Source: Cetorhinus maximus (taxonomy: Eukaryota). From it: a DNA stretch of 64,000 nucleotides. The notes beneath the pieces were generated by a model. The model did not search any database and was not told the origin of the DNA. It saw nothing but the letters and a program-made list of their open reading frames with translations. The DNA is taken from contig NC_135887.1 in assembly GCF_964194155.1 (NCBI RefSeq), forward strand, positions 40,238,001 to 40,302,000. The letters are read 5' to 3'. Shown one piece after another: positions 3,513 through 56,800 of the stretch. Both the position numbers and the translations under genes were made by a program. Within the stretch, counting starts at the first letter, position 1, and each line of letters begins with the position of its first letter.

Positions 3513-4220
3513 GGGCTGAATTTTCTGGCTGACATGCAGGTGGTGAAGCCTGCCCATCAGTGCTTAAAATGTCACGCGCTGACGTCGCACGAGCATCCCG
3601 ACGTCAGCGCACGGCATCGCGATGTTTGGGTCGGCGGGTGCGCTATGCAGCACGATGCATGCCCGCCATTAAATAAAGGCCTTGTTAAGGCCATTGAGTC
3701 AGCAATTGACAACAATTTTGAGGAGCCTGTGCGAACTTCTGCTCGGCGCACGGGCCCAACGGGCAGGCAGGTAAGTGATTTTTTAACAAACCTCATCCAC
3801 TGGCAGGATAAGGTTTGAGTTCAGATTTTAAAAAGTTTAATAAAGTTTTTGTGTACTTTATTAACAAGTCCCATCTCGTGTGACATTTTCACATGAGGGG
3901 GACATGTTAATGATTTTCTTATTTTTCTATTTTTCAACTTTCACAACCTTTCAGCGCTCTCCCTGAGGCATCATTTAGCCTCAGGGAGATGTGCGCTCTT
4001 TTGCGTGCATGCACGAAAGAGTGCACTCTCGCCATTGGGGAATCCCCCCTGCCCGCACAGGAAGCGCATAGCGCTTCCCGTCGGGCGTCATGCTGGGCGG
4101 GCCTTAATTGGCCCGCCCACGTAAAATGGCGGCGGGGCCCGTTTCGGTGGTGACGATCGGCTGCCCGCCCGCTGCCAAGTCGGTCGGGCTCACCCACCCA
4201 TCAAGGGCAAAATTCAGCCC
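3513..4220. mobile_element. PIF/Harbinger non-autonomous element (MITE)
   Basis: TIRs GGGCTGAATTTT / AAAATTCAGCCC; 3-bp TSD CTG; GC/CpG-rich; inserted between pol and the PPT of the Gypsy element. Confidence 0.88.
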
Positions 4221-4403
4221 CTGGACACTGAACTGGAGTGATTTCTGTTGATACCAAGGACTTGTGATATATATATATTAATGTTAATGCATGTGTCTGG
4301 TAATGTAATAGTGTAATAAGTATAGGAGATGGTGTGAGATGGGTTATTAAACTGAAGCCATCTTTTAGAATTATGACAGTTCATTTTTCAATAAGGAGGG
4401 GGA

Positions 4404-5176
4404 TGTCATGAAGCTATTAATGTATATATTATTGGAAAATATTTTTCTTTTAAAATGGAGGTTTAGTCTGTGGGTGTGTCTTAATTGGATTAAAGCCAGC
4501 TAGTTTGGGTGCTTTGATGTGTACTAGTTTTGATATGTAAGAGAGATAGTGTGCATTTGCATTTTTTGAATAGAACATTCAAGAAGTAGGGTGAAAACGG
4601 ACACCTATCTAGCAGCTACCAAGCAATATGTTTATATTACTAATAAAATTGGTACTATAAAAGGGGTTTCATTGTTAAAAGGTGGAGTTCAAAGAGGCTG
4701 GTGAGACAATGAGAATTTGCATTCAATCAGTGATGGTAGGTATAACAAGACAACCATTTTTGTGTGTACAGAGCAGAGACAATGTGAGATCAAAAGACAG
4801 CTGTAAGTCTCCAATTCTCTCCACAGGAACCAAAGTGAAAAGAACCTCATTTTGAATTCATAAGGTAAAAATGCTTTGCTTGGTGTCTGGTTAAGTCTAT
4901 GGGTTGCTGTTGCCTTAATGGAGATTAGTTTGGGAATTTGTTAAAAGTTATGATAGTAGTAATTGGTAGCCATGTGTATATATATTTAAACCTGTGTAAA
5001 TTAATAAAATGTTTCATTTAGTTTAATGAAAAACCTCGAGAACTAGTGGCCTGATTCCTGAGTTTAGAGTCGCATCTCAAACATAACACTTAAAATTATA
5101 GGCTATGACAGTTGTTTAAAGTTTCCCACTGGAATTTTTAAATAACTCAGCTTTACCAACTGCATCGATCATAACA
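4404..5176 (+). repeat. 3' LTR of the Gmr1-type element
   Basis: Starts TGTCA directly after the PPT, ends ATAACA before the TSD; contains AATAAA; direct repeat of 553-890. Confidence 0.9.
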
Positions 5177-10017: not shown

Positions 10018-10474
10018 TTATTCTTTCTTTATACACACAGCCTCTAATGCGCCCTGTGCATCATCAATCTGCTGCTGCAATCTCTCTCGCATCGCTTCAT
10101 TTGTTGCTTTCTTTAGCCTGCCTTCCATCTCTTCAATAACCGCACGGTATCCCACCACGTTGTGGAAGACCCGGATTGCACGGTCACCACACGAAACTAA
10201 AAACCTACTGTTGATGTCAAATGCCAAGTCAGCAATCTCCTCCCCGTGCACATTTAAAAACTCTTCCTCCTGCTTGCCTGTCTTGGCGCTATGCACTGTG
10301 ATGTTGAAGCCACTGGAGATAGCTACCACCCTAGCATCAGGAGAAAGAGCGATTCGGCAGGGATCGGAGACATTGCATTTCATAGTGTACAGCAAGTAGG
10401 GGTCCTGCTGCTGTTTGTACTCAACATCAGTGTCCCACAGCTTCCAGGTGCCATCTTTAGAAACTGTTGCCATT
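10018..10474 (-). CDS. tbl2: tbl2 exon 7 (last coding exon)
   Basis: MATVSKDGTWKLWDTDVEY...LEAVCIKKE-stop; CAG acceptor at 10475-10477. Confidence 0.95.
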
Positions 10475-16400: not shown

Positions 16401-19400
16401 TTGCGAATGAGGTAGGCTAAGAGTAGTGGAACATTTAGGGGATGGTGATCATTGTATCATAAGGTTTAGATTGGCTATGGAAAAGGACAGGAACAATCCA
16501 GAGTAAAAATAATGGGGCAAAGCCAACTTCAATGGGATATGAATGGTTCTAACCCAGATAAATTGGAATCAAAGGTTGGCAGTCAAGACTGTAACTGAGC
16601 AGTGGGTTATCTTTAAAGAAGAGATAGTTCGGCCACAGTCAAGGTAGATTCCCACGAAGGGGAAAGGTAGGGCAAACAAATTGAGAGCTCCCTGGCTGAC
16701 AAAACAGATAGAAATTAAGATGAAGAAAAAAAATTGTGTTTATGAGAGACGTTATGTGGAGAAAACAACTAAGAATCAGGCTGAATATGGAAAGTTTAGA
16801 GGGGAATTAAGAAAACAAATAAGAGAAGCAAAGAGAAAGTATGAAAAGAGACCGGCAGCTAACATAAAAGAAAATCCAAAAGTCTTCTATAGGCATATAA
16901 ATCGTAATACGGTGGTAAAAGGAGTGGGACTGATTATAGACCAAAAATGAGAATTATACATGGAGGTAGGGCACAGAGCTGAGATATTAAATGAATACTT
17001 TGCATCTGTCTTTATCAAGGAAGATGAGGCTGCACAGGTCAAGGTGAAAGAGGTGGTAGTTCAGACATTTGAAGGATTTAAAATTGATCAGGAGGAGGTA
17101 TTGAAAAGGCTGCCTGTACTGAAAGTCAATAAGGCACCTGGGTCAAATGAGATGCATCCAAGGATACCAAGGGGAGCAAACGTGCAAATAGCAGAGGCAC
17201 TGGCCATAATTTTCAAATCTTCGTTAGACTCAGGGGCGGTGCTAGAGGAGTGGAGAATTCCAAGTGTTACACCCTTGTTCAAAAAAGGGTAATATGGGAG
17301 AAAATTCATAGTCACTTGGGAGGAGGAGGAGGAGGAGGTGGTGGCACAGTGGTATTGTCATAGGCTAATAATCCAGAGACCCAGGGTACTGCTCTGAGGA
17401 CCAGGGTTTGAATCCCACCATGGTGAAATTTGAATTCAATAAAAATCTGGAAATAAAATTCTAATGATGACCATGAAACCATTGTTGGTTGTCGTAAAAA
17501 CTCATCTGGTTCACTAATGCCCCTTTAGGGAAGGAAATCTGTTGCGCTTACCTGGTCTGGCCTACATGCGACGCCAAACCCACAGCAATATGGTTGACTC
17601 TGAAATGGCCTAGCAAGCCACTCAGTTGTATCAAGCCTCTACAAAGTCTATAAGGAATGAAACTGGATGGACCACTTGGCATCGATAACAGCAAACTCAG
17701 CCCTGTTGACCCTCCAGACTCCTCCTTAGTAACATCTGGGGCCTTGTGCCACAATTGGGAGAGCTGCCTCACAGGCTAGGCAAGCAACAGGCTGACATTG
17801 TCATACTGATGGACTCCCTGCAGAGGGTGGCGGCACAGTGATATACAGTCGGGAGGGAGTTGCCCTGGGAGTCCTCAACATCGATTCCAGACCCCATGAA
17901 GTCTCATGGCATCAGGTCTAACATGGGCAAGGAAACCTCCTGCTGACTACCACGTACTGCCCTCCCTCAGCTGATGAATCAGTGCTCTTCCATGTTGAAC
18001 ACCACTTGGAGGAAACACTGAGGGTGGCAAGATTGTGCTCTGGGTGGAGAACTTCAATGCCCATCACTAAGAGTGGCTCGGTAGCACTACCACAGACTGA
18101 GCTGGCCAAGTCCTAAAGGACATAGCTGCTAGACTGGGTCTGCAGCAGATGGTGAGGGAACCAACAAGAGGGAAAAACTTACTTGACCTTATTCTTACCA
18201 ACCTGCCTGCCACAGATGCATCTGTCCATGACAATATCGGTAGGGATGACCACCACACAGTCCTTGTGGAGACGAAGTCCCAACTTCACGCTGAAGATAC
18301 TTACCATCTTGCTAAACGGGATAGGTTTCGAAAAAATCTAGCAACTCAAGACTGGGCAACCATGAGGCACTGTGGGCCATCAGCAGCAGCAAAATTGTAC
18401 TCAATCACAATCTGTAACCTCATGGCTCATCATATACCCCACTCTACCATTGCCAAGCCAGGGGATCAACCCTGGTTCAATGAAGAGTACAGGTGGGCAT
18501 GCCAGGAGCAGCACCAGGCACACCTGAGGTGTCAACCTGGGGAAGCTACAACACAGGACTACTTGTGTGCCAAACAGCATAAGCAGCAAGTGATAGAGCT
18601 AAGCAATCCCACAACCAAAGGATCTAAGCTCTGCAGTCCTGCCACATCCAGTTGTGAATGGCGATGGACAATTAAACAACTCACTGGAGGGAGAGGGTCC
18701 ACAAATACCCCTATCCTCAATGATGGAGGAACCCAGCACATCAATGCAAAAGATAAGGCTGAAGCATTCACAAGAATCTTCAGGCAGGAGTGCCTAGTGG
18801 ATGATCCATCTCGGTTTCCTCCAGAAGTCCCTAGTAGGACAGATGCCAGTCTTCAGCCAATTCAATTCACTCCATGTGATATCAAGAAATGGCTGAAGGA
18901 ACTGGATACTGCAAAGACTATGAGCCCTGACAATATTCCAGCAATAGTACTGAAGACTTGTGCTCCAGAACTTGCCGCGCCCCTAGCCAAGCTGTTCAAC
19001 TACAGCTACAACACTGGGATCTACCCGGCAATTTGGAAAATTACCCAGGTATGTCCTGTACATAAAAAGCAGGACAAATCCAACTTGGCCAATTACTGCC
19101 CCATCAGTCTACTCTCCATCATCAGTAAAGTGCTGGAAGGGGTCATCAACAGTGCTAGCAAGCAGTACTTGCTCAGTAATAACCTGCTCACTGATGCTCA
19201 GTTTGGGTTCTGCCAGGGTCACTCAGCTTCAGACCTCATTACAGCCTTGGTTCAAACATGAGCAAAAGAGCTAAACTCCAGAGATGAGGTGAGAAGAGAA
19301 TGACTGCCCTTGACATCAAGACAGCGTTTGACCGAATGTGGCATCAAGAAGCACGAGCAAAACTGGAGTCAATGGGAATCAGGAGGAAAACTCCCACTGG

Positions 19401-22400
19401 TTGGAGTCATATCTAGCACAAAGGAAGATGGTTGTAGTTATTGGAGGTCAATCATTTCAGTTCCAGGACATCTCTGCGATAATTCCTCAGTGTCCTAGGC
19501 CCAACCATCTTCAGCTGCTTCATCAATGGCCTGCCTTCCATCATGAGGTCAGAAGCGGGGATGTTTGCTGATGATTGCACAATGTTCAGCACCATTTGCA
19601 ACTCCTCAGATGCTGAAGCAGCCCATGTCCAAATACAGCAAGACCTGAACAATATCCAGGCTTGGGTTGACAAGTGGCAAGTAACATTCAAGCCACAGAA
19701 GTGCCAGGCAATGACCATCTCCAAAAAGGGTGAATCTAACCATCACCCCTGGATGTTCAGTGGCATTACCAACACTGAATCCCCCACTATCAACATCCTG
19801 GGGCTTACCATTGACCAGAAACTGAATTGGACCAGCCATATAATTACTGTGGCTACAAGAGCAGGTCAGAGGCTAGGAATCCCGTGGCGAGTAGCTCATC
19901 TCCTGACTCCCAAAGCCTGTCCACCATCTATAAGATACAAATCAGGAGAGTGATGGAATAATCTCCACTTGCCTGGATGAGCGCAGCTCAAACAACATTC
20001 AAGAAGCTTGATACCATCCAGGACAAAGCAGCCCACTTGATTGGCACCACATTTACTCCCTCCACCACCGACAAACAATGACAACAGTGTGTACCATCTA
20101 CAAGATGCACTGCAGAAACTCACCAAAGCTCCTTAAGCAGCACCTTCCAAACCCACGACCACTACCATCTAGAAGGGCAAGGGCAGCAGATACTTGGGAA
20201 TACCACCACCTGGAAGTTCCCCTCTAAGCCACTCACCATCCTGGCTTGGAACTATATTGCCTTTGCTTCACTGCTGCTGGATCAAAATCCTGGAACTGCC
20301 TCCCTAACAACACTGTGGGTGTACCTACACCACAGGGACTGGAGGGGTTCAAGAAGACAGCTCACCATCACCTTCTCAAGGGCAATTAGGGATGAGCAAT
20401 AAATGCTGGCCTAGTCAGCAACGCCCACATCCAATGAATGAATTAAATAAAAACTTGGGCAAATGCAGGTTAATTAAGGAAAGCCTGTATGAATTTGTTA
20501 AGTGCAAATTGTGTTTAACTAACTTGCCTGACTTTTTTTTAAAAAGGCAAAATACTGCGGTTGCTGGAAATCTGAAACAAAAACAAAAAATGCTGGAAAA
20601 ACTCAGCAGGTCTGACAGCATCTGTGGAGAGAAAGACAGAGTTAACATTTCAAGTCCGTATGACTCTGGACTTGAAACATTAACTCTGTCTTTCTCTCCA
20701 CAGATGCTGTCAGACCTACTGAGTTTTTCTAGCATTTTTTGTTTTTGCTTGACTTTTTGATGAGTTAACAGAGGGTTGATAAGGATAATGCTGTTGTTGT
20801 GATGTACATGGACTTCTAAAAGGCATTTGATAAAATGCCGCACAACAGATGTGAGCAACATTAGAGCTCATGGAATATAAGGGACAGCAGCAACATAGAT
20901 ACAAAATTGACTGAGTAACAGGAAACAGAGACTTGTGGTGAACTGTTGTTTTTTTGGGCTGGAGGAAGGTTTATAGTGGATCTCCTCAGAGGTCAGTTTC
21001 AGGACCCTGCTCTTCCTGATACACATTAACTACCTAGACCTTGGTGTACAAGACACAATTTTAAAATCTGAGGATGATACAAAACTTGGAAGTATTGTGA
21101 ACTGTGAGGAGGATAGTGTAGAACTTCAAAAGGACAAAGTCAGGGTGGTGGAATGGGCAGACAGGTGGCAGATTAAATTTAGTGCAGAGAAGTGTGAAGT
21201 GATTCATTTTGGTAGGAAGAACGCAGAAAGACAACATAAAATAAAGGATACAATTCTGAAGCGGGTGCAGGAGTAGAGGCAACTGGGTGCATACGTGCAT
21301 AAATCATTGAAGGTGGCAGGACAAGTTGAGAGTGATTAATAAAGTATACGGCATCCTGGGCTTTATCAATAGGAGCATAGAGCACAAATGCAAATAAGTT
21401 ATGTTAAACATATATGAAACACTGGTCCAGCATCAACTAGAGTATTATGTCCCAATCTGGACCACAAACTTTGGGGAAGATATGAAAGCATTAGAGAGGG
21501 TGCAGAAAAGATTCACAAGAATGGTTCCAGGGATGAGGAGGCATTCAGTTATGAAGTTAGATTGGAGAAGTTGGAACTGTTCACCTTGGAGAAAAGAAGG
21601 TTGAGAGAAGATTTGAAAGAGGTATTCAAAACCACGAGTGGTCTGGACAGAGTAGACAAGGAGAAACTGTTCACATTGGTGGAAGTGCCAAAAACCAAAG
21701 GGCACAAATTTAGGTAATTGGCAAAAGAAGAAATGGCAACATGAGGAAAAATGTATTAAACAGTGAGAGGTTAGGATCTGGAATGCACTGCCTGAGATTG
21801 TGGTGCAAGCAGGTTCAATCAAGACATTCAAGAGGAACTTGGATTAATCTCTGAAAAGGAAGAATGTAGAGTCACAGGGAGAAGGTATGAGAGTGGCTCT
21901 CGGAAAGCTGTTCCTTCAGAGAGCCAGCACAGACATGACAGGCCAAATGGCCTTCTTCTGTGCCATAACCATTCTATGATTCTATGTTTAAATAGATCAC
22001 ATTTTACCTGGAGTCAGGGCTGAAGCACACATGCGTGGCGTGATCAAGCTCAACATTAGTTCGCACACAACGATGGTCATGCTCAAGGAAGTCTTTTGTA
22101 CTCCAAATTCGCACAGTACGGTCATCAGCACAGGAAGCCAGGTATTTCCCATTACTACTGAAATCCAGACAGCTGATATTCCCACTGTGATTCTTTAAAA
22201 CAAAATAACAATTCAATCAAAACCCTTTTTCAGTCACTGATAATACATCACTCATCTTTACTAAGGTTTTTGTCACATTTCAGGATTTTCTGATAGTACT
22301 TTTTGCACAGAAACGATTTGGAAAAAGTGTTATTCTTAACATGCTTTAAATGCATAGTGTAATTTTAACAAAAGGATCTGAGATGATAAGTAATTAAGTT

Positions 22401-25400: not shown

Positions 25401-28400
25401 GAAATTACTGCTTTTCCCCATCTCAGGTACTGCTCTCGTGGCTCTGAAGCACATATTGCTGTGACAGATTTGCTCTACAATTTTAAAGTTCCTTACCTTT
25501 AGTGAAGTGGCCAGCAGTGGGTGGGCAAACACATGTTGCTGTGATTTTTCTTTACGTGGACGCTGCAACTTTTGCTTCCTTGATGCTGTGCTTCTGTCAC
25601 TTACACCATTACTGTCTTTACTGTCCTCTGAACAAAACAACAAATGGCTTCAGTTCACAAACATTTTTAGAATCATTTAATCAAATATCTATCTATACCC
25701 GAAGTGTTCAACCATATGTGCCTTGTATCTGCTGATGGGCAGCAGCTCGGGAGAGGGGCACAGGTAGCAGCTAGAGAAGGGAGCATGAACAAAGACATTA
25801 CACCTGCAACTGACTTTGACCAACACATGTATATGAACAGATTAAATATGATGTGGGATTTCTACAGGCAAAAAGATGAACAAAACCTTGCCTCATATCA
25901 CATTTTCTATAATGATAACATCACCACATATATTACTTTGACACATGATAAAGCTGTCACTCATTTGGATTTCTAGTACTCTGTTATCGATGTTTAGCAT
26001 CCTAAGTGCTCAATGGATTAAACACTGACTGTTGGTAGTGAGTCATACAGAGGAAGAGGGTCTCAGAATCAACCCCTAGGGCTTTAGCATTTCCCAAGAG
26101 CCTGGGTTTGGAGTTTAAACGTTTGCCTTGAACAGTGACACTGTTATCTAAAAAAGGCATCCTGTCCTCTGGGCATGTGAGCTGTACAGAATTTCCAAGA
26201 TGCATCAATAACATTCAAGCTGGCCAACTGATATTATGCTTTTCTTCCAAATGTAATAATATCAATTTGATTGTTTTTTATAGAAAATTTGAAGCTAAAG
26301 GACTACTTTTAAAAAGAGGTGAAATTAATATATATTTTTTAAAAAACACAACCTCATCTAATGCAGTCATATTTATGGCCTCTTCCACTCACTGCTAAGA
26401 CACATCAGCAAGTTGCCAATGAGCCAAACTCTATACGGCACTTCAGATCTGCCAAGCTTCAGATTCCCACTCCATAGTGATTTCAGGCCAAAGCACCCCT
26501 CATTTCTTAAAACACTAACATGCCCAATGCAGTGCCACAAAACTCCAGGACCAAAGAGCAAAGGCTACAACCAATGCAGTTAAAGTACACTCCACCTACC
26601 TAGTACTGCTAGACACCCTGATAGTTAACTGCAATTAGCAAATTGCATAAAATCCTGTTGTGTAATGCTGCAGGTTAATGCCGATTGTTAATTGCTCCAA
26701 GTGTTGCTGCAGCCTCTTAAAAAAATGTTGCCTGCAACCACTTCACGACTTACCTATAAATTCCTATTATAAATCTTTACTTAAGCATTTCAATGTTGAC
26801 ATAAAAAGCATCAATCAAAATTGTAACACAGGAAGTAACATTAGTTAACATAATGTGGAAGTATATGTATGTCCACACCATGCTTTTGCTTCTACTACCT
26901 TAGTTGGTAGAAATAGTGCTGTGGAGATGGAGCGTTTCTTTTGGGGAAGAAGCAGTGCTGGGGTGTGCTGCAGGGAAAGGCACACTATGTGTCACCCTTC
27001 ACTCAATGCTAATGGTCTATCCTCTCAGTCAGAAGGTCATGGGTTCAAATCTCAATCCAGGACTTGAGCACATATCTAGGCTAACAATTCTATGCTGTAC
27101 TGAGGGAGTGCTGCATTACATGCCATCTCGCAGATGAAATCCCATCTCTGTTTTCAGGTGAGTGTAAAAGGTCCCATAGCACTATTCGGAACGTATCATG
27201 AGAGTTTTCCACATGTTTATTTCTCAACCAACAAAAATAAAAAGAGATTAACTTTTCTTCACAAAGTGATTAACACTTCCTAGCAGAGCAGTGGAGCTGA
27301 AAACACCAAAATTATGTAGCAACTAGCTATAAGAGGGGAGGGGGAGGCACAGAGAAAATTTTAAACGTATGAATTAGGAGGATTCTTCTAAATGTATTAA
27401 TTAAGTCACACCTCATCCATCAGTATTGTGAGGTCCCATTGCTGTTTGTAGGTATTTGCTTTTGTGTAAAATGGTTGCCACATTTGCCAACAAAAAATTG
27501 GCTGAAGTGCTTTGGGATGGATGTAATAAGCACAATATAAACACAAGTTCTTTCCTTTCATAAAAGCAAAATCCACCTTTTAGCCTATTTCGATCCCTTC
27601 CCCCCACCCCACCCCCACTAGGGCTATCTGTCACTTGCTCGTCCTGCTTTCTACCCTTAATGTCACCATTAGCACATTCCTTAGCTAATATCAACCACTG
27701 TCAACACCCCTTTGTCCTTTTGTCTGAGATCTTTGGCAATCCCTTCTTTGCCTCCACCTATCACTGGCCCTCTATCAAACTCTACCTGTCCCACCTCCCT
27801 CAACCAGCTTATATTTCACCTAATTTCTATTTTTCCTTAGTTCTGATGAAAAGTCATACGGACTCGAAACGTTAACTGTATTCCTTTCCGCAGATGCTGT
27901 CAGACCTGCTGAGTTTTTCCAGCTATTTTTGTTTTTGTTTCTTTCCTTTCATACCAGACCCATCATCCTGAGTCACCTCAGTAAAGTACTAGGATGAGGG
28001 GTGACAGGGGAGCAGATACTGCTAGAAACACTTAACAGGCCAAGTAGCACTCCTGATGTTTCCAAGTAAATCCCTGGGGGATCCTAGGCTCGTATCCAGA
28101 GATTAGTTTGCTTATGATCAAATCTATGGAACAGGCTCCCTAGGGAGATGGTGGAAGCAGATAGATCAGTGACCCATTCAGGTTTAAATTAAATCAATAT
28201 TTTCCCCATTCTGGGATGCAGTATATGAGCAATTTTAGACATGATACAGTAAGTGTAGGATGCTCAGCAAGAGAAGGTAGCTTTGAGCCAATAACTCCCA
28301 AAGCTCTCTATCACTAAAGTTTTCCATATGTCTGGGTCTGCTGTACACTAATTGTTATTGATGGTCAATATGTCCAGTATGGCTGTCTCCAGGTGGCCTT

Positions 28401-28870: not shown

Positions 28871-29402
28871 CATCAAGAGCCAGTAGAAATCAGTCAGCAA
28901 CTAACCTGGTCCTGCAAGTTTCCTTTAAACTCTGTCTTTGTTTTTTCAGCCTCCCTAATTTGGGGGCTGTGTTTATTTTGTCCCTCATTTTGTTAATTTA
29001 GTTTATTTGGTTGACTGAAAAGTGTTAACTGGGCACCAGCGGAGGGTCTTTACTGGTGCTGAATGCCTGTTCTGCTGAACAAGGCTGAGAGAGGGGTATT
29101 AGTTGCAGCATTGATCCCCAAGATGGCAGCAGTGGCATCAAATCAATGCTGCACGCTGATTGGTATCACAATCTGCCTGCTCTGTAAATTCTGGCCAAGG
29201 TCCCTCCGTGCACACTTATACCATCACCAAAAAAGTGCAGGCATCATGTGCAGCTTGCACCAGAAATGTGCTCACATGCTATGGATGCCAAGTTTGGAGG
29301 AAAGACAACATTTGTAACACAGAAAAGCTGGGCATAATAAAGCTGAATTTTGGGACCTAGTAAATTAATTAGAGGCACTGGTTGAAAGAGAAGTCAGTTA
29401 TC

Positions 29403-32290
29403 ATTGAAGGAGCGGTGATATACTTCCAAGTCAGGATGGTGAGTGACTTGGAGGGGAACTTCCAGGTGGTGGTGTTCCCATCTATCTGCTGCCCTTGTCC
29501 ATCTAGATGGTAGAGGTCATGGGTCTGGAAGGTGCTGTCTAAGGAGACTTGGTGAATTTCCGCAGTGTATCTTGTAGATGGTACACACTGCTGCTGCTGT
29601 GTGTTGATGGTAGAGGGTGTAAATGTTTGTGGATGTGGTGCCAATTAAGTGGGCTGCTTTGTCCTGGATAGTGTAAAGCTTCTTGAATGTTGTGGGAGCT
29701 GCACGTATCCAGGCAAGTGGGGAGTATTCCATCACCCTGACTTGTGCCTTGTAGAGGCTGGACAGGCTTTGGGGAATCAGGAGGTGAGTTACCCGTCGCA
29801 CAATTCCTAGTCTCTGACCTGTTCTTGTAGCCACAGTGTTTTATGGCTAGTCCAGTTCAGTTTCTGGTCAATGGCAACGCCCCAGGTTGTTGATAGTGGG
29901 GGGTTAAGTGATGGTAATGCCATTGAACATCAAGGGGCAATGGTTGGATTCTCTCTTCTTGGATACAGTCATTGCCTGACACTTATGTGATGTGAATGTT
30001 ACTTGCCACTTGTCAGCCCAAGCCTGGGTATTGTCCAGGTCTTGCTGTATTTGGACATGGACTGCTTCAGTATCTGAGGAGTTATGAATGGTGCTGAACA
30101 TTGTGCAATCATTAGCGAACATCCCCATTTCTCACCTTATGTTGGGAGGAAGGCCATCGATGAAGCAGCCGAAGATGGTTGGGCCGAGGACACTACCCTG
30201 AGGAACTCCTGCGGTGATGTCCTGGAGCTGAGATGACTGACCTCCAACAACCACAACCATCTTCCTTTGTGCTAGGTATAACTCCAACCAGTGGAGAGTT
30301 TTCCCCTGATTCCCACTGACTCCAGTTTTGCTAGGGCTCCTTGATGCCACACTCGGTCAAATGCTGCCTTGATATCAAGGGCAGTCACTCTCGCCTCACC
30401 TCAGGAGTTCAGCTCTTTTGTCCATGTTTGAACCAAGGTTGTAATGAGGTCAGGAGTTGAAAGGCCCTGCCGGAACCCAAACTGAGCGTCAGTGAGCAGG
30501 TTATTGCTAAGCAGGTGCCGCTTGATGGCACTGTTGATGACCCCTTCCATTACTTTACTGATAATGGAGAGTAGACTGATGGGGCAGTAATTGGCCAAGT
30601 TGGATATGCCCTGCTTTTTGTGTATAGGACATACCTGGGCAATTTTCCACATTGCTGGGTAGATGCCAGTGTTGTCGCTGTACCAGAACAGCTTGGCTAA
30701 GGGCGCAGCAAGTTCTGGAGCACAAGTCTTCAGTACGATTTCCGGAATATTGTCAAGGCCCATAGCCTTTGCAGTATCCAGTTACTTCAGCCGTTTCTTG
30801 ATATCATATGGAGTGAATTGAATGAAGAGTTGCATCTACGATGCTGGGGACCTTCAGAAGAGGCCGAGATGGATCATCCACTCGGCACTTCTGGCTGAAG
30901 ATTGTAGCAAATGCTTCAGCCTTATCTTTTGCACTGATGTGCTGGGCTCCTCCATCATTGAGGATGGGGATATTTGTGGAGCCTCCTCCAGTGAGTTATT
31001 TAATTGTCCACCCCCATTCCCGACTGGATGTGGCAGGACTGCAGAGCTTAGATCTGATCTGTTGGTTGTGCCTGTCTATCACTTGCTGTTTATGCTGTTT
31101 GGCACGCAAGTAGTCCTGTGTTATAGCTTCACTAGATTGACATATTTTAAGGCATTCCTGGTGCCGCTCCTGACCGTGCCCTCCTGCACTCTTCTTTGAA
31201 CCAGGGTTGATCCCCTGGCCTGATGGTACTGGTAGAGTGGGGTAGCACAGTGGTAGTGCCACACAACACGATGGAGGGTATCCTCAATGTGTTGGCAGGA
31301 CTTCGTCTCCACAAGGCTGTGCGGGAGTCACTCTTACTGACACAGCGGCAGGCAGGTTGGTGAGGATGAGGTCAAGTATGTTTTTCCCTCACCACCTGCC
31401 ACAGACCCCAGTCTAGCAGCTAAGTCCTTTAGGACTCAGCCAGCTCGGTCAGTAGCAGTGCTACTACCGAGCCACTCTTGGTGATGGACATTGAAGTCCC
31501 CCACCCAAAATACATTCTGCACCCTTGCCACCCTCAGTGCTTCCTGGTGGTCGACATGGAGGAGCACTGATTCATCAGCTGAGGGAGAGCGGTACGGGGT
31601 AATCAGCAGGAGGTTTCCTTGCCCATGTCTGACCTGATGCCATGAGACTTCATAGGGCCCAGAGTCAATGTTGAGGATTCCCAGGGCAACTCCTTCTTGA
31701 CTGTATACCACTGTGCTGCCACCTCTGCTGGGTCTATCCAGCCAGTGGGACAGGATGATGTTGATGTCTGGGACATTATCTGTAAGGTATGACTCAGTGA
31801 GGATGACTATGTTAGGCTGTTGCTTGACTAGTCTGTGAGACAGCTCTCCCAATTTTGGCACCAACACCTAGATGTTCGTAAGGGAGACTTTGCAAGATCG
31901 ACAGGGCTGAGATTGCCATTATCATTTCCGGTGCCTAGGTCAGTGCCAGGTAGTCCTTTCATTCCTTTTTTGTGACTTCGTAGTGGTTTGTTACAACTGA
32001 GTGGCTTGCAAGGCCATTTCAGAGGGCAGTTAATAGTCAACCACATTGCTGTGGGTCTGGTGTAGACCAGGTAAGGATGACAGATTTCGTCCCCTAAAGG
32101 GCATTAGGGAACCAGATGGGTTTTTACAACAATCAATAATGGTTCGTTAGACTTTTAATTCCAGATTTTTATTGAATTTAAATTCCACCATCTGCCTTGA
32201 CAGGATTCGAACCTGGGACCCCAGAGCATTACCCTGGGTCTCTGAATTACTAGCTCAACAACAATACCACTACACCACCACCTTCCCCAG
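29403..32290 (-). mobile_element. Second copy of the tRNA-headed single-ORF LINE, lacking the last ~190 nt
   Basis: Colinear with 17321-20265; the head carries TGGTGTAGTGG and a perfect GGTTCGAATCC; EN and RT fragments appear in the ORF track. Confidence 0.9.
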
Positions 32291-35843: not shown

Positions 35844-38800
35844 GTAAGTGTTCACTACCTCATGCTGTTTGGGTTCTGTTCGGAGAGCTGGTGCAGACTC
35901 GAGGCTGAATGGCCTCCTTCTGCACTGTGACAATCCTGTGATTCTTCTTCAATATATTTGCTTCAACGCCCCCTTTTACATAGGCAATCATATTTTATTA
36001 AAATGTTTGTTCTCCATTTCTGTTTCGTACTGTCCTGATTATGTTGCCCATTAGTGGGTATAGTTCTGCGGCCGCATAATGGGTAGAGAAACTGCCTCAT
36101 ACTGAGTACTGGAGTACAGACTCACTGCCCCATATTGGATACAGCTGTATTGCCCTATTCTGGGTAAAGACTCGCTGCTCCATTCTGGGGTACAAACCCT
36201 CTGTCCCATATTGGATATGATTGTACAGCTCAAAACTGGGGTACAGACTCACTTCCCCATACAGGGTACAGATCCACTGCTCCCTTCTGGGAAATGCTTG
36301 CACCGCTCTATGCTAGGGTACAGATCCACTGCACCATTCTGGGGTATGGTTGCACTGCTCTATACTGGAGTACAGATCCACTGCCCCGTACTGAGTATAG
36401 TTGGATTGTTCCACACTGGGTACTGACACACTACCCCATACTGGGGTTTAGACTCGCTGCCCCTTGGTGGGGTATTGACTCACTGCCCTATATTGGGGTT
36501 TAGACGCATTGCCCTATACTGGGTACAGACTCACTGCCCTATACTGGGTACAGACTCACTGCCCCATCCTGGGGTATAGACTCACAGCTCCATACTGGGT
36601 ACAGATTCCCTGCCCCAGACTCGGGTACGGACTCACTGCCCCATACTGGGTTATAAACTCACTGCCACATACTGGGGTACAGTATCACTGCCCCATACTG
36701 GGTTATAAACTCACTGCCCCATACTGGGTTATATACTCACTGCCCCATACTGGATTATAAACTCACTGCCCCATACTGTGGTACAGACTCACTACCCCAT
36801 ATTCGGGCACAAATTCACTGCTCCATACTGGACCACAGGCTCACTGACCCATACTGGAGTATAAACTCAATGCCCCATACTGGAGTATAGATTCATTGCC
36901 CCATACTTGGGTACAAACTCACTGCCCCACACTGGATTATAGGCTCACTGCCTCATACTGGGTTATAGACCCACTGCGCCATAATGGGGTTTATACTCAC
37001 TGCCCCATACTGGGGTACAGTCTCACTGTCCCATATTGGGGTTTAGACTCACTGTCCCATACTGGGGTGCAGTCTCACTGTCCCATACTGGGGTGCAGTC
37101 TCACTGTCCCAAACCGGGGTATAGACTCTGTCCCATACTGGGGTATAGACTCACTGCCCCATACAGGGGTACAGTCTCACTGCCCCATACAGGGGTACAG
37201 TCTCACTGCCCCATACAGGGGTACAGACTCACTGCCCCACACTGGGGGTACAGTCTCACTGCCCCATACTTGGGTACAGTCTCACTGCCTCATATTGGGG
37301 TACAGTCTCACTGCCCCATACTGGGGTATAGACTCACTGTCCCATACTGGGGTACAATGTTACTGCCCCATGCTGGGTTATAGAGTCACTGCTCCATATT
37401 GGGATTTCATTCATTGCCCCATATTCGGGCATAGACTCAGTGCCTCATTACACTTCTGACTTGTAACAAAAACAGAAAATGCTGGAAAAACTCAGGAGGT
37501 CTGACAGCATCTGTAGAGCAAGAAACATTATTGACGTTCCAAATGACATACCTTGGCAATTTTCTACATTCCACTGGGCAACAGCTCAACCAGGGGCACA
37601 GCTAGTTCTGGAGCACAAGTCTTCAGTACTACAACTGGATGTTGTCAGGGCCCATAGCTTTTGCTGTATTTGGCCATTTCTTGATGTTACAACTGAAGTC
37701 GTTATGAATGCTGTTTGGTTAAGTTGCAAAAGCGCTTAGCGCAGCAGGGGAGGTTGAGTTCACATTTTAATTGAAAGTTTAAAGGTGCTATTAAAGGATT
37801 AGCTGTCTTTGATATGGTAACTGAATAAAGCTTTGTTTATAGTACAGATTGAACACTTGAGGGATTTTAAAAGCCCTCAAGTGGGATTTATGAATGGGAG
37901 TGTTTTTTCAGTAACAAGTGTGAAGGAGTGAGTTGCATAAGATTGTTCAACATTTATATATATTTATCTCTACTTGGCTCCTGAGATCTGCCCATGCTGA
38001 ACACTGGGTGAGTTTCTGTAGAGATGGTATGGAGGGGGAATAAGTTGGCATTGAAGTGGCATGGAGGTATGCGGAGGCATGGGAGTGTGTGTGGGGGTTG
38101 AGGGGTTGTTAGGGGTGAGGACTAGAGGGCCTAATGGCCTTTCAAACAACTGGGCTGAAGTCCCAAAGAACCGAGACAGGCCTTCTAACCAGCCCACCTT
38201 GGCACTCATCCGTTTCATGGCTGCCTACAAACTGCTTCCAGGGTCAGCGGGCTCGACCCTATCTCATTGCCGTCTCCCCATAGTGAAAATTTAAACTGAG
38301 CCACATTTGCCAAGTTGGAAAATTTCCTGATTCAAACTACCCACCTCAGCAGCGAAAATCTGGCCCTCATTGTCTAGCCTGTTCCATGAAGAATAGCTAC
38401 TTGGGTGAGCTACCATAGGCCAGCAACGCCTTGAAGTCTACCTAGGTAACTGTCAGCACTTCCAAAAAGAGAAGAGAAAATGGAGGAGGTGATTTGGGAA
38501 AGTTTCTGCCAACACTTCAGGCTGCACTTACACTTTCAGTTTAGCAAAGTTACATGTAGATTTCAGTTTCACATTAACATTAAACTTGCAGTGTCAGCCC
38601 TGAAACAGGGCCCTACTTGACTCCTGAACAGAACAGATGGTACCTCCAACAATGCTGTACTCTCTTAGTTGTGCATGAAGCATTAGCCCGGATTAAAAAC
38701 TGGAGTGAGTCTAGTTATTTACCATTTACAGCAAAATATAGAGTAAAAGTTCTCCTTCAATAATTACAAGGGTACCAGATTTGACTAGAAAGTCTCTTAA

Positions 38801-41800
38801 CGCTTATGTGAATTTATTATTGTAATATTAGTATTTACTTCAAAAACACAATGGTTCAACTGGAAGGGAAGAAAACCGATTGCCCAGGAGTCTCCCCAAT
38901 CCTGTATGCAGTGCAAGGGTTAACAATCAAGTTTTCTACTGAATGAGGAGGGACATGGTTAATTTAAGAGTAAGGTCATTGACTTTACAAGCTACATTTC
39001 AAAATACTCCATCTGACCCTGTAAAAGTTTACAGAGCAAAAGGGTCAAAAGGCCCCACACATAATTACAAGGGAAAATTACTGAAGAATTTTAGTTGCAT
39101 AGTCATTTAACATAATTGTCAGTATAAGCTAAAAATTAAGGAGGAATATTGCATCAAAGACCTTGTTTACTCTGTTAGTTTACTGACTGGAACTAAATCA
39201 TAATTTTGGAAGGAGCCCAGCAGTGCATGTTCATGTGATCTGCACAAGGCTATTAGAAGGGAAGTAAATGGAAATATTTGTCCTATATCTGATTCCTTCC
39301 ACCAGAATGCTTTAACATTGCCAAGAGGCTGTCATTAGCGCTGGAGAGGAGAGGATATGTAAGAACACACAAGAGTATATAAAAGAGTTTCCAAAACTAT
39401 AGCTATCTTAAAGCTGATTGTAATGTTGTAGTGACCTGGATTTGGCTTTCCTCCATTTATGCTGGGCATTGCGTCCTCATGGTACTTTTCCGATGCCCTG
39501 ATATATCAAGAGATTGACTAAAAGTTGTGCTTTAATCTTTTTTAGAAAGATTGGGCATGATACCCCTGGCACCATTCTATCAGGACTAGTGATTGGCACA
39601 CTGTCCTGGCACTGACGCTCCCTGCCCACCTCATCCCAATGATTTCAATAGAGAATAAAATTAGGCAGTGCATAAGATGGGCAACAGAATCAAATCTGAC
39701 CCATCCCCACTGGATGGGCTAGATTAAAATTGACGCTCAAGTTTTTTCGCTTATATGTATGTCTTCATGGCAGAAACCATTCTAGTAAATCTATACCGTG
39801 CCCTTTCTAAGGCCTTAATAGTCTTCCTGTACTGTGGTGTCCTATAATGCACACAGTACTCTGGCTGAGGTCTTATTAGAGTTGTATATAGGATCACTAT
39901 TTTCTCCTGACTTTTATATTCTATAATTCTTGTGAAAATACCTAACATGTTGCAACCTTTCAACTTGAGACAGTACCTTTAATATCCTGTAAACTGCATG
40001 CCTAAATGTCATGGTGGTGTAGTGGTAATGTCACTGGACTAGTAATCCAGAAGCCCAAGATAATGTTCCAGGGTCATGGATTTAAATACCACCTCGGCTG
40101 CTGGTGGAATTTAAACTTAATTAATAAATCTGTAATGGTGACCATGACAACTATCATCGATTGTTGTAAAAACCCACCTGGTTCACTAATGTCTTTTAGA
40201 AAAGGAAATCTGCCGTCCTTACCTGGCCTGGGCTATATGTGACTCCAGACCCAGAGCAATGTTGTTGACTCTTATCTACCCTCTAAAATGGCCTACAAGC
40301 CACTCAGTTCAACGGCAATTAGGGATGAGCAACAAATGCAGGTCTTGCCAGCAATGTTCACATCCCATTAAAGAATAAAGAAAAACAAAGCTTCCAGTCA
40401 GACTCTATTTACAGCTGCGTTTTTATCAAAATGCTTCACCTCACACTTACTGGCATTAAATTGTGTCTGTCCCTTTTTAAGCTTTTCCACATCACCAATC
40501 CCCCATCTTATCAATAACCCCTTACAGCTTCCTTTTGTCTTCTGAAGAATTAATTATATCTCCTATTTTGGTATTATCTGCAAATTTCAACATCTGTTGG
40601 GCGTACATCCAAATCGTTGATATACTCAAAGACTGGTGTGTGGGAGAAGTGGGTTCCGGTTTGTGGGGCATTGGCACCTGTACTGGGGAAAGTGGGGGCT
40701 GTGCCATTGGGACCGTCTACACCTGAACCATGCTGGGACGTGTGTTCTTGCGAACCGCATAACTAGGGAAGTAGAGAGGACTTTAAACTAAACAAGGAGG
40801 GTGAGGGAGCAAGCTTGGGTAAATGTGGCAAATCAAGGGGTAGATTCAAGGCAGGACACCGTAGTTGTAATATAGGAAATGAAGGTCATAGAATAACAGG
40901 AAAGGGCAGAGAGATAAAACCTAAGAATACACCAGTAATCAAAACTAGATGTTACAAAGATAACAAAAAGACAAAGCTAAATGGCCTGTATCTAAATGTG
41001 CATAGCATTCATAACAAAGTAAATGAATTGATGGCGCACATTGAAGTAAATAAATATGATCTGATAGTCAATATAATATAGGATTTGAACCCAGTTCCCC
41101 AGAGCATTACCTGGGTCTCTGGAATACTAATCCAGTGACAATACCACTATGCTGCTACCACCTCCCCTATTAATTAAGAAGGCTAATGGAATGCTATACT
41201 TTATTATGAGAGGAATTGAACATAAAAGTAAGGATGTTATGCTTCAGTTGTACAGGGCATTGGTGAGACCACATCTTGAATGTTGTGTGCAGTTCTGGTC
41301 TCCTTATTTAAGGAAGAATGTAAATGTGTTGGAGGTGGTTCAGAGGAGGTCTACTAGATTGATACCTGGAATGAATGGGTTGCCTTATGAGGATAGGTTA
41401 GACAGACTGGGCTTGTTTCCACTGGAGTTTAGAAGAGTGAGGAGTAACTTGATTGAAGTATTTAAGATCCTGAACAGTCTTGAAAAGTTGGAAATGATGT
41501 TTCCTCTTGTAGGTGAGTCCAGAACTAAGGGGCACTGTTTTAAAATTAGGGGTTGCCCTTTTAGGACAGAGATGAGAATTTTTTTATCTCAGAGTGTTGT
41601 GCAGCTTTGGAACTCTCTGCCTCCAAAGATGGTCAAGGTGGGATCATTGAATATCTTTAAGGTGGAGGTAGATAAATTCTTGTTCGTTAGAGAATCAAAG
41701 GTTATCGAGGGTAGATGGGAATGTGGAATTCAAAACACAAACAAATCAGCCATGATCTTATTGAATGGCAGAGCAGGCTCAAAGGGCCAAATGGCCTACT

Positions 41801-44800: not shown

Positions 44801-47800
44801 CCTGCGAGGTATTCCTCAGCTGGGGTTGGCCAGGCTGCAATGGAGTTGCAGGTATAGAGTGGATTAGTCAATGCTCCTCTGTCCTTTCAGGAGAAGACAA
44901 GCCATAACAAATTGGAGAGGTCACGGACAGGCAGAGGTCCGCTCAACCTGCTGCTGCTCAACAGGCTCGAGCAGGACGCCCTTGAGCTAGAGAGCCTCCA
45001 CGTGCTCCACGCCTCCTCCAGCTCCACATGCAACTGGGCGTGGAGAGGCGGGGTTGCCAGACGAAGGTAAGAGTGCAGTGCACAGAGGTGAGAGTTGCAG
45101 GTTGTGTAATCATTCTAGTGTAGTCTCTTCATTGATGGGAGCCTCAAACCTGGAGGCCCCATTGATCATTGAAAGACAATGGCACCATGATGCAGATCTC
45201 CATGGTCTCACCAGGGTGCATGTACAGTGACAGTGTGATGACTTAAACTAATGACATGTCCTTTTCCTTGTTCTCCCTTTTAGATTTGCCAGCACACACT
45301 CGCTCTCTGGACCCCGAAGGGCCATCCCTGATGCCAGAGGACCAGCAGGCTTCATTTGCACCTGTGTCACACCCGCTCTCTGAACCAGGCACCAACGCAG
45401 ATACCAGTGCATTGGTGGGCATTAGATCGGTGGCTAGAATGTCGGTGCACATTGGTGAGGGCACTTCGCACTCACTTGGTTTATATGTCTGCTGGTGTGG
45501 ACATTAACACCAGTAATGTCATTATGCTTTCAATGTGACAGTAACATTAAATTTGCTTTGGTTCTGTTGGCTTGAGTATGCTTCATCTTTTTTCTTTCTA
45601 GTGCAGGGTACGCCAGTACGTAATGCCGGACCTGAGTGGCTCAATGCTTTATTGCACAGGCATTGAGTGGACTTAGGGTGCAAAGGAAAGGGTCATTTCA
45701 GACATCCAGGATGGAAGCAGCTCCCCTGGCATGTGGTGGAAGCAGATCTCTGGCAGCCTAGCTGAAGGAGCATTGGATCAAGGCGTTCCTGGTGTCCCCG
45801 CCTCCCTGGAGCTTATTGAGGTTTGCCTCCACACCCTCAGCATTCTCCTCACCGTGTTCATCTTCTGACTCACTACTGGATTCATCATCTGTGGCCTGTG
45901 CAGCTGCATCCTCTTCCTCCAGTGGGTCCCCCCTTGCCAGTGTCAGATTGTGGAGAGCGCAGCATGCACCCACTATCAGTTACACCTGCTCTGGGGGGTA
46001 TTGCAGTGCGCCCCCTGAATGGTCCAGGCGTGAGAAGCGCCTCTATGGTCCTCTCTACCACCACCCTTGTTGGATGCATGATTCATATTGTAACGCTGCT
46101 CTGCCTCTGTTCTTGGATGGCGGAGAGGCATCACGAGCCACCTCCTCAATGGATAGCCTTTGTCAACCAGCAGCCATCCATCCAGTCGGGCTAGAGCACT
46201 GAAGAGCCTCAGCACTTGAGAGTGTCTCAGAATGTACCCGTTATGGGAGCTGCCAGGGCACCTTGCACAGACTTGCAAAATATGCATCCTTTGGTCACAC
46301 ACTAACTGCACATTCATGGAGTGGAATCCCTTCCTGTTGACGGAGGCACCTGGCTGACCCACTGGCACCTTGATGGCCACATGTGTGCAGTCGATGGCAC
46401 CTTGGATGCAGGGGAACCCAGCAATCACTGCAAAGCCTCTGGCTCGCTCAGCCTGGCTGGTCTCATCCCTGCAGAAAACAATAAAGGTCAGCACCCGCCT
46501 GAACAGAGCTTCTGTCACCAGCTTGCTGCAACTGTGAACAGCTGATTGGGAGACTCTAAACAGATACCCAACTGAAGTTGACGGCCACTGTGAGCTCCCG
46601 AGCCACTGGCAAGGGGTGTCCACCCACATAGTCAGAGCTGATCTCGGGCCCAATCATCTGACAGATGGAGGTCATGGTCTCCTTGAGAGGCGGAACCTCC
46701 TTCGGCATTGCACCTCAGACATATTGAGGTGGCTGCATCGCCGCCTGTAAACGCTGAGAGCAGGAGAGTGGTGTCTTCTGCAGCCCCTTCCGCCTTGGAC
46801 TTCCTGCTGGCCCTGCACCTTGTGCCTGCGCCTCTCCTCCCACAGGTCCCTCCCCTGGAGGCTGCATTGGGACAACTAGCCTCCTCTCCCTTCTGTCTCT
46901 CTCTTCCTCCTCAGAAGAGGTGCCACCAGCAGAGACCACAATTACCAGGGTAAGGGAAGGCTGTCTGATACCTGGAAGGGTCCACACGGTCTGAATCCTC
47001 CAGAGGCCATGCAGACACCAATAAGTCCTGAAATGAAACCTGGAAATGCTAAGAATGAAGCCCCAAACAGAGATGAAGCTGCCAAGTACCAATAAGCAGT
47101 CAGTAGCAAATTACCTCCAAAACTCCTCACTGCCCACACTGGCAATGCTGCTGACCCTTTTTATCCCGCCTTTGGATGAGGTTTTTGAAATTGTCGGCTG
47201 CCCGCCTGCCCGTTTTGCCCGTGCGATGAGCGCAAAGTCGTACAGGCAACATAAAATACAACTTAATTGCCTTTTTAATGGCCTTAACTGGTCTCATAAT
47301 TGATGACAGGCGCGACTCTGACTCCCACTCACGCCCGCCTGGCAAAATATTGCGCGAGTGCACGATGACATCATTACACGCTATTTTACACTCGAACGTG
47401 TCGGGTGTGTGCCCACACACCAAGTGAAAAATTCTGGCCTAGATTACCTATAGGGCAAATGTGGATTGCAGCTAATTTATTCGGCATTATGCCATCTGGG
47501 ATACACTTGTGCATGTGTTATTTGGAGGAAGAGGAGTAGGATGAGCAAAAAGCATTGCTGATGTCTGGGAGGTGAGGAATCATTATCTGGAGAGATCATC
47601 TGCTCACTGCTTCCGATGAATCTATCAACCAAAGGGCTTTCCTGGCCCTAGCAGAGAAACACCAGTTTCACAGGCAAGAGGGTAGGCTGGGAATTCCACT
47701 AACTTTTGCAACTTGCAACCTGATTGTAAAGTTGGCACAGCACTGCCAGGAATAGTGAAGATCACCAACCCCTTGAACTTTATTTCCTCCAGGGACTACT

Positions 47801-53800: not shown

Positions 53801-56800
53801 TAAAATTACATTTTTAACCCTTACACTGTGGGAATATCTGAAGAAACTCTGATTATTCAGTTTTATTCCTTTTCAGCATGCCATTATGACCTTGAATGAA
53901 CATCAGTACTGCAGCAATAATTCCATGTAAACTTTAGGAAAATTGTTCTAAAATCAGATTCTCCCACATTCATCCCCACCCATACTATTGTAGCCTGTAC
54001 TATTGTAGGTGCTGACTCTGTGTATATTAGGAATAGAATACAAAGGGGGAGAAGTCATGCTTCAGCTACACAAGGCTGTAGTTGGACCACACCTGGAGCA
54101 CTGAGAACATTTCTAGGAACCACACCTTCGGAAGGATATTGGCCTTGGAGGGAGTGCAGTGTAGGTTTACCAGGATGATAACTGGACTCCAAAGGTTAAT
54201 CTATGAGGAGAGATTAAGCTAACTGGAGTTAGCCAAGAATTTAGAAAGTTATGGGTGATTTGATCAAAATATCCAACATATTAAGAGGAAAAGGTGGGGT
54301 AGCTTGGAAGAAACTATTTCTGCTAGTTAGGAAGTCTAGGGCACGATCGAAAAATTAGAGTCAGACCTTTCAGTAATGAAAACAGGAAATACTTCTACAT
54401 GCAAAGGATAGTAGAAGCTTGGAACTCTGCAAATGGCAATTGATGTTCGGTCAATTGTTAATTTTAAAACTGAGGTTGAAAGTTTTTTTTGTTAGCTGAA
54501 GATATGTAGGGATATGGCACAGAGGCGGGTGTATGGAGTTAAGTCGCAGATCAGTCATGATCTCAACAAAATGGCCTCCTCTTGTCCTATATTCCACTGA
54601 TGTGGGGACCATACCTCAAAAGGCCATTCTCCATGAACTCAGACAGTGAGTATCAGCAGGTAATTGTACCAGAGGGTACCTCACAGCTGAGTCCGACCCT
54701 ATTCTCCCCCAACATTCTCACAGATTTTAATGAAGCTACCGCATGCTTCATTGATCTGTAGCAAGGATAAAACTTTCCTGATGTTATATGCAGATGAGCT
54801 CAGTGCATCAAGTGGAGACCCTGGTCATTGCACATCATGGAAGACTGACCTCAGTGCCTGCACATAGGTGTAACATTCATTGAGCATCATTCTTTTCATA
54901 GCAGGCACTGTGAAATCTGAGTCTGCTGCTTCTTAGGCCAAAGGAAGCTATCACTGCAGCCTTTACTGTGAACGGCCAAATCCTTATCCATCCCCCATTC
55001 CTCCAGCTCCCTCATTCACTGTGATTCAACTGGGACAATTTCTTCACCTCCACTGTGTAGATTCCACAAGATGAAAGTCTCTGAGCTGCAGCATAGAGCA
55101 AAAAAAGCTGATCGATGAGGGGATGTAATTTTTGTGGGGGGAGGAATGGTAGGACACTGGAGAGATTGCTGCTGAGTTAGTTGCCCTTGCCCAGTTGGGT
55201 AAAATTTTGTAGAGCAAGGGGTAGGGTAACTGTCATCACCGTCCCCTAGAAACGCATAAAGACTTTTTTCCACTTCCTTCACCGCATTGTCATCATTGTC
55301 CTCCTCTTCCACCACATTTGACTGTGGGAGACCTGCAGATGAAAAGGACATGAGGATGTACAGCATTCAGACAGGCAGCCAACCAGGAGTTCAGTGTCAG
55401 CTAGGCCCCTTAAAATACTTTATTACGAACAGATACTGCTTATCTCCTAATCATCTGCTACTGGCACTGTCCTAGCAACCTCAGCTTCTCATGGAGCTCG
55501 ATTGCCTGCTCCTCAAAATCAGTTGCCCCAGATCCTCCCACCTGTGAACTGTCTGCCTCAGTCATTATGAGCCAGTTTCTCCTGAAACAATATTAACAGC
55601 GACATGTAAAGATAAGTATCTGAAGGGAATCTCCAACATGGCAGCAGACAGCTGATGTAACAAATGCTAGAAGGACTGGACAATGTGTGAGAGATTGGAG
55701 GAGTAAGTCTGCTTGTGATCGATACCTCAATAATTCAAGGTAGAAGAAGAGATTTATTGAATCATGGTGCAGTATGAAATAAGACTTAGCATCCTCTTTA
55801 AGAACTGAAGGTGATGAGTAGAGGGATCCCATAGTGCTAAAGTGAAAAGGCTTGTTTCCATGCAATGCTGACTTTTTTTTATTAATTCATGGGATATGGA
55901 CATTGCTGGCTAGGCCAGCATTTATTACCCATCCCAAATTGCCCTTGAGAAGGTGGTAGTGAGCCGCCTCCTTGAACCGCTGCGGGCCATGTGGTGTAGG
56001 TATACCCACTGTGCTGTTAGGAAGGGAGTTCCAGGATTTTGACCCAGCGACAGTGAAGGAACTGCTTCTTTCTGATTGATTGGTTCTAGGAGGCCTGGCC
56101 GCACTGATGTACACGGACACAATACAGACATTTGTGATCATCGCTGGAGCTTTTGTACTGATGGGATACTGTAAGTGAGTCGCTCTTTGTACCTTCCAAA
56201 CAAGAAAGATTTAAAATCTTCCCCATGTCCCCTTGATGCCTCACTGAGTTTAAACTGTTACTGAGCCATACAGAGCAGGAAGGGCCCAGATTACGTACCA
56301 ATAAGGGCTGACTTGGCTGATCTTATCCAGGACAGGGGATTGGCGTGTTTGGAGCGTTGTGCCTATAGCTTTGGGAAGAAGGAAATCAGCCAGTGCTTGC
56401 ACCCCTAATCAATATCCAGGAACCTCTCCTGTAAAGTGCACGTGTGTGGATGTTGGTTGCAAGCTGATTGGTAATATTATCTGCAATTGAGTACCCTGCT
56501 GACACTATCAGGACCTCTATTGGAACTTGGGTGAGGCATCAGAGGGTGTCTAGTTTTCCTTGGAGCCTGTATCCAGAAAGAGTCAGCAGCTTGAGATAAG
56601 GATGTGAGGAAACTGAAAGAAGAGGACAAAGCCCTATTGCTCCACAAATGGTGCACATGAGCCCATCTACGTCGACACAACAAAAACACTATTACTCACT
56701 TTAATCATTTTTGTTTGGGACCATTAATGCTTGTCATGGTTCAGGATGCTTTGGGCCCTTTCCCACAGAATAGTATTAGATTTGAAGAGTTTTTAATATG

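Follow-up and report, generated by a model that had tools for sequence, protein, structure and literature searches.

The SINE copy and its surroundings

In the window, by which we mean the whole stretch of 64,000 nucleotides that was analysed, the element at 40010–40388 is a decayed member of an amplified SINE family and consists of the head (to 40309) and the last ~70 nt of a single-ORF LINE of the Zenon type (CR1 group), with no sequence between the two (table 1). When 40010–40388 was searched against the window by BLAST, its nucleotides 3–300 matched 17339–17627 (72%, E = 3e-38) and its nucleotides 300–377 matched 20376–20454 (82%, E = 1.5e-16). These two blocks, with nothing between them, confirm the head-plus-tail structure that the original prediction had read from the letters, and both partners do lie in the window, as it had claimed, the headed LINE of 17334–20454 being accompanied by a second copy on the minus strand (32287–29402). 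A SINE-specific middle is absent from the extant SINEs, in which only the LINE ends are present. The window SINE copy carries a private 20-nt deletion in its body, the window LINE copy of 17334–20454 a ~75-nt deletion at 17816, and no target-site duplication was found at the 40010–40388 SINE. V-SINEs are marked by an 80-bp V domain in their body, and HE1 probably pairs with the canonical CR1; a V-SINE/HE1 label for 40010–40388 was considered and dropped.

Table 1. Coordinates of the SINE copy, the LINE copies and their fragments in the window.
Feature	Position	Strand	Basis
SINE tRNA-like head, type A	40010..40100	+	sequence, Rfam, ARAGORN, alignments to genomic tRNA-Gln and tRNA-Thr
SINE head boxes	A box about 40015-40025; decayed B box about 40078-40089	+	
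SINE anticodon-arm hairpin CTGGA-CTAGTAA-TCCAG	40034-40050	+	
SINE body, same sequence as the remainder of the LINE 5' untranslated region	40101..40309	+	
SINE tail, LINE-derived: last ORF codons and stop, predicted stem-loop, A-rich end	40310..40388	+	
Head and 5' region of full-length Zenon LINE copy, type L (younger subfamily)	17334..17627	+	
LINE part absent from SINE: decayed single ORF with endonuclease and reverse transcriptase	17628..20376	+	
LINE 3' tail common to SINE	20377..20454	+	
Second headed LINE copy, type L, without 3' end	29402..32287	-	
Head-only fragment, 83 nt	41081..41162	-	
5'-truncated LINE 3' end	55879..56065	-	

The window also holds an abundant palindromic repeat of ~200 nt with many partial copies (20543–20750, 22720–23117, 25011–25231, 27749–27941, and others), one of which directly follows the LINE tail. 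Elsewhere, two direct repeats (553–894 and 4404–4743, 92.7% identity) flank broken pol-like ORFs (989–3482), the 553–4743 unit being presumably an LTR retrotransposon; a long decayed tandem array lies at 36107–37448; a minus-strand ORF at 10018–10539 with WD40 repeat matches is probably a host exon; and another minus-strand ORF, at 45976–46653, resembles a Harbinger-type transposase.

With regard to the head, the predicted perfect hairpin of the anticodon arm is indeed present, and its AGT loop is the majority anticodon loop of the family (17 of the 24 copies with a scorable loop). The accompanying reading of the head as Thr-like draws on that loop: alignment to the only two genomic tRNAs compared gave z scores of 6.2–6.4 for tRNA-Gln(CTG) and 4.5–5.8 for tRNA-Thr(AGT), the former being equal or higher, with a Gln-like stem and a Thr-like loop. 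An origin from tRNA-Thr is not supported over one from tRNA-Gln. The Rfam tRNA model matched the SINE head at 19.9 bits (E = 0.15, below the gathering threshold) and ARAGORN called no tRNA in it; in the majority head sequence, the A- and B-box motifs are clear by the usual box patterns. Many heads (loci L346–L395) lack an extra hairpin between the anticodon arm and the B box and thereby have normal tRNA spacing, which reflects either recurrent deletion or a subfamily.

A headed LINE family and its short forms

The majority sequence of 13 full-length copies, out of 20 fetched, describes a LINE family of ~3.3 kb with one ORF of 944 codons and no ORF1, the other frames reaching at most 106 codons. 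The long ORF has no AUG near its start and begins with an Arg-rich N-terminal stretch; a short AUG-started frame of about 36 codons (~347–460 of the majority) overlaps its start. In the window copies, Pfam recognizes RVT_1 (E = 6e-10) and, below the curated cut-off, Exo_endo_phos (E = 1e-4). The 3' tail is A-rich and not a microsatellite. Protein searches returned shark gene models containing fragments of the LINE and, as protein records, further relatives of 920–1,060 aa at 30–35% identity; the gene models, together with the published consensuses described below, indicate that the host is a shark or a ray. Judging by domain layout, A-rich tail, and consensus matches, the LINE partner is a Zenon element of the CR1 group. 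Motifs resembling an A box and a B box are present at its 5' end, and among 30 loci chosen at the ORF start the head lies upstream in 27 (26 by BLAST, 1 by eye), the remaining three being truncated near the ORF start; neither an alternative native 5' end nor an ORF1 was found in these 30 loci. The head is thus a fixed part of the LINE family. At one locus (L123), a second head fragment sits in antisense within the LINE's own 5' region, about 70–200 nt past the body motif.

The same arrangement recurs in published consensuses. The five elasmobranch Zenon consensuses of Stuart et al. 2026 (PMC13343379), named CarCar, RhiTyp, ScyCan, HypSab, and SquAca, start with the same head and the same head-to-ORF join as the LINE here, as indicated by exact motif matches and by-eye agreement over the first 400 letters, and the elements that this source describes are likewise 2.9–3.3 kb long, devoid of ORF1, and terminated by a poly-A tail. 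The head of the Squalus consensus shows, by eye, the features that we call type A below. The hagfish and coelacanth consensuses begin otherwise over their first 400 letters, as compared by eye, the start of the coelacanth one being in low-confidence lower case.

Both partners are abundant in the 3.99-Gb genome, and the SINE/LINE pair is real, the SINE being the head-plus-tail form of a tRNA-headed Zenon LINE. As lower bounds, and with pattern lengths that differ so that the counts are not directly comparable, exact searches gave 1,770 matches to the 31-mer of the type A SINE junction, 4,252 to the type B SINE junction, 3,979 to the head-to-ORF junction of the long form, 17,127 to the LINE 3' end, and 29,088 to the body motif, with none for the reversed-pattern controls. 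Where the body motif was the only criterion of choice, 30 loci comprised 22 short forms, 6 long forms, and 2 of another kind; the same motif had no match in metagenome contigs.

The two main short families, SINE-A and SINE-B, differ at the 5' side of their junction. In SINE-A, head position 315 (window 17627) is joined to LINE position 3216 (window 20377) with zero extra bases and a direct repeat of at most 1 nt, a single T being ambiguous. The SINE-B break lies 23 nt earlier, so that these 23 nt, common to the LINE and SINE-A, are missing from it; the 3' break, about 12 nt before the predicted stem, is common to both families. The original prediction had proposed a microhomology junction at TCAAG, which we reject: the TCAAG at 17631 is separated from the break by 3 nt, GTA, which are missing from the SINE, and this motif is a minority at that site (5 of 63 LINE copies, against 27 with TCAAA and 12 with ACAAA). 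Other head-plus-tail junctions occur in about 11 of 40 A-headed candidates, and a few recur, namely head 319 to tail ~3188–3201 (L328, L303, L304, and L348) and head 315 to 3213 (L112 and L192), which suggests that further small SINE families exist.

Type A and type L heads differ at 28 non-CpG columns, indels included. By the same measure, 5 columns separate the SINE-A head from that of A-LINE, 28 separate it from that of L-LINE, and 6 separate the SINE-B head from that of L-LINE; short forms exist with A heads and with L heads. From 249 distinct heads mined, 36 were left out of the group comparisons (35 of unclear type and 1 unplaced), and since the loci were picked by exact patterns, mostly at the start of one contig, the ages and proportions that follow are biased. 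Divergence of the head from its own majority was 0.099 in SINE-A (n = 41) and 0.115 in A-LINE (n = 37), against 0.076 in L-LINE (37 of 41 with enough cover) and 0.075 in SINE-B (24 of 26); SINE-B and L-LINE are not distinguishable in this respect (P = 0.6), when SINE-A and L-LINE are (P = 0.0006). SINE-B matches L-LINE in head, tail, and age. The divergence of the ORF tracks the head type (A 0.135, n = 10; intermediate 0.114, n = 14; L 0.071, n = 30), and the LINE subfamilies succeed one another, from A, the older, through the intermediate to L, the younger. Heads cluster by subfamily and not by long or short form, a grouping that is partly circular since A and L were typed on the head itself; in the head tree, built from at most 16 heads per group and with no outgroup SINE or LINE placed, the one strong split (0.993) unites 41 L-type heads with 2 A-LINE heads, and no clade of the ORF tree exceeds 0.9.

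The succession is not free of mixing. Mosaic heads, A upstream and L downstream, were seen in 19 of the 78 typed long copies, with ORFs mostly intermediate in sequence and age, and in a few copies (L153, L291, and L317) an L-like ORF is preceded by a head of the A or intermediate type, which shows that recombination occurs. On the other side, the type A junction is found 1,154 times with the A head marker and 15 times with the L head marker (the markers differ by one base in length), A-headed long elements giving 114 exact matches. Among the tails of A-headed elements, 6 of 23 have C23, an allele of the SINE-A tail that is missing from all 15 comparison tails, mostly L-headed. As for the claim that SINE and LINE of the window are the same element, it stands at the level of the family and fails at that of the subfamily: the SINE shows 89% likeness to the majority sequence of type A and 85% to that of type L, and both window LINE copies are of type L. 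The parent of the 40010–40388 SINE is therefore likely the older A subfamily, and not the type found at 17339 that had been proposed.

Possible routes to the short form

The origin of SINEs is usually drawn as a small-RNA head fused to a LINE tail. Here, this head-tail fusion sits on the autonomous element, and a single deletion can thus make a SINE. We consider it probable that the SINE family, which combines ~315 nt from the start and ~70 nt from the end of a tRNA-headed shark Zenon LINE, was born by deletion in the older subfamily. A deletion that spared the head and the 3' stem-loop would leave a complete SINE, which Pol III would transcribe from the head and which the LINE protein would copy via the stem-loop. 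Such deletions were probably amplified at least twice, giving this family from A and a second one from L, and loss of the coding middle is likely a one-step route to new SINEs that ran more than once. Their likely source would be a jump of the polymerase in the course of reverse transcription, for which long microhomology is unnecessary, and the common 3' break just upstream of the stem-loop likely reflects selection that favoured a minimal tail. As to the head itself, a single and early gain is probable, as the different start of the hagfish and coelacanth consensuses suggests; it was likely captured, from either a tRNA or a SINE of earlier date, before the shark/ray split. In this regard, the two options left by the original prediction, internal deletion of a headed LINE or capture of a SINE's 5' part by the LINE, probably both apply, at different times, even if microhomology, a Thr origin, and a parent of the 17339 type have to be given up.

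A reverse order of events, in which an old tRNA-SINE with a Zenon tail came first and a 5'-truncated Zenon took its whole front by template switching, only SINE-B and the scattered forms being deletions, seems rather unlikely to us. It agrees with the non-elasmobranch consensuses, whose different start implies that the head of the elasmobranch LINEs has a source elsewhere, with the excess of short over long forms among elements bearing the A marker (1,154 vs. 114), and with the fact that tail sharing and module exchange are a textbook route (PMC5786205; PMC11481361). However, since no SINE-only sequence remains, the capture would need to stop exactly at the border between SINE body and tail; SINE-A copies are not older than A-LINE copies, the difference running the opposite way (P = 0.02); and the Squalus consensus places the A head on an autonomous Zenon. 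SINE-B could not be the donor of the LINE's head-to-ORF join in any case, because it lacks the 23 nt. The 3' break common to SINE-A and SINE-B also fits one ancestral SINE followed by head exchange and a 23-nt loss; fitting minimal-tail selection and common descent alike, it keeps in play both this reverse order and a continuous exchange, in which long and short RNAs would swap heads repeatedly during reverse transcription and the matching subfamilies would be the outcome of concerted evolution between a single old SINE and a single old LINE. We regard the latter as improbable: if the mosaic heads, the A-type heads on L-like ORFs, and the 15 L heads at an A junction speak for it, the mosaic-headed copies mostly have the intermediate ORFs expected of an intermediate subfamily, cross combinations are rare (15 vs. 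1,154), and the many junctions unrelated to one another show that new deletions arise often.

It could finally be asked whether the element is a one-off genomic deletion, or a SINE that inserted by chance before a truncated LINE. Target-site duplications are near the control rate (7 of 62 copies, vs. 251 of 3,782, or 6.6%, for mismatched flanks), and their absence alone points that way. A single copy with a private junction, which the original prediction had named as the outcome that would undo it, is not what the genome holds: thousands of identical junctions exist for both forms, those 1,770 matching that of 40010–40388 included, and the same head stands in the consensuses of five species, so that the counts refute this reading and leave it practically no chance. 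Deletion within the headed A subfamily is the origin that we retain as the most probable.

Possible Pol III transcription of the LINE and comparison with known elements

The head raises the further possibility, to which we give tentative and less than even credence, that elasmobranch Zenon is an autonomous coding retrotransposon which Pol III transcribes from a captured promoter of tRNA origin. Its 3.3 kb would have been cleared of T-run terminators, and it would serve as a recurring SINE factory, every internal deletion giving a SINE ready for use. In the 3.27-kb LINE majority, the sense strand has no run of four or more T, against 14 runs of A, 11 of C, and 7 of G, an absence that is significant against base shuffles (P = 0.01) but not when dinucleotides (P = 0.17) or codons (P = 0.07) are shuffled instead. 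Stretches of at least three T occur 4 times, the expectation under codon shuffling being 12, and none of 2,000 such shuffles went as low. In actual copies, T4 runs occur at 0.62 per kb vs. 2.17 expected, a signal close to a single observation since the copies share ancestry. Canonical CR1 elements in the same loci show no such depletion overall, with 4.8 and 5.5 per kb in two regions vs. 3.6 and 4.0 expected, a third region of 6 copies only being below expectation (0.99 vs. 1.86). The missing T4 runs may be taken as a hint of Pol III transcription. Contigs from four putative RNA runs of four organisms cover all 30 bins, head-to-tail joins included, in a form from which starts, strand, and polymerase are not readable. 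If the head truly drives the LINE, a coding retrotransposon would here be a product of Pol III, and one would have to ask how translation starts on an uncapped RNA without an in-frame AUG near the ORF start.

From a comparative perspective, deletion derivatives of Zenon are already known, and the tRNA-headed parent is the new part as far as the literature searched goes. In the main text of PMC13343379, the word tRNA does not occur and SINE appears in the reference list only, the head and the short derivatives being undescribed there; the literature consulted, which subscription papers, Repbase, and Dfam may complement, gave no description of a tRNA-headed shark LINE. The closest case is Persaeus, a SIDE of Lepidoptera reported as an amplified 5'-plus-3' deletion derivative of a Zenon LINE, which was born several times and is active alongside its parent (Wang et al. 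2019, PMC6740152). According to the same source, Persaeus lacks both tRNA homology and a Pol III promoter and has a variable middle and a 5-bp repeat at the break, whereas the shark SINE has a tRNA-like head inherited from the LINE, no middle, and no such repeat. Like a SIDE, the shark SINE consists of the ends of its parent LINE only, but it has a small-RNA head and no direct repeat at the deletion ends; it has the attributes of a SINE2, namely a tRNA-related head with A and B boxes in a dispersed multicopy family with a LINE tail.

Among elasmobranchs, the HE1 V-SINE and the HER1 LINE of sharks and rays are also listed as a pair of a tRNA-SINE and a LINE with a common tail (PMC3747384; PMC4824008); in the supplements searched with regard to this pair, the body motifs of the SINE studied here had no match. 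The bipartite derivatives of RTE, Ingi, Vingi, and R2, and the SINEs built on them such as Bov-A/Bov-tA, also hold the 5' and 3' parts of a LINE (Kojima 2018, PMC5786205); in the Bov-A/Bov-tA type, however, the tRNA head was added after the deletion by a template switch, whereas in the shark it was already on the autonomous element, where dated subfamily pairs within one genome make the one-deletion route to a SINE testable.
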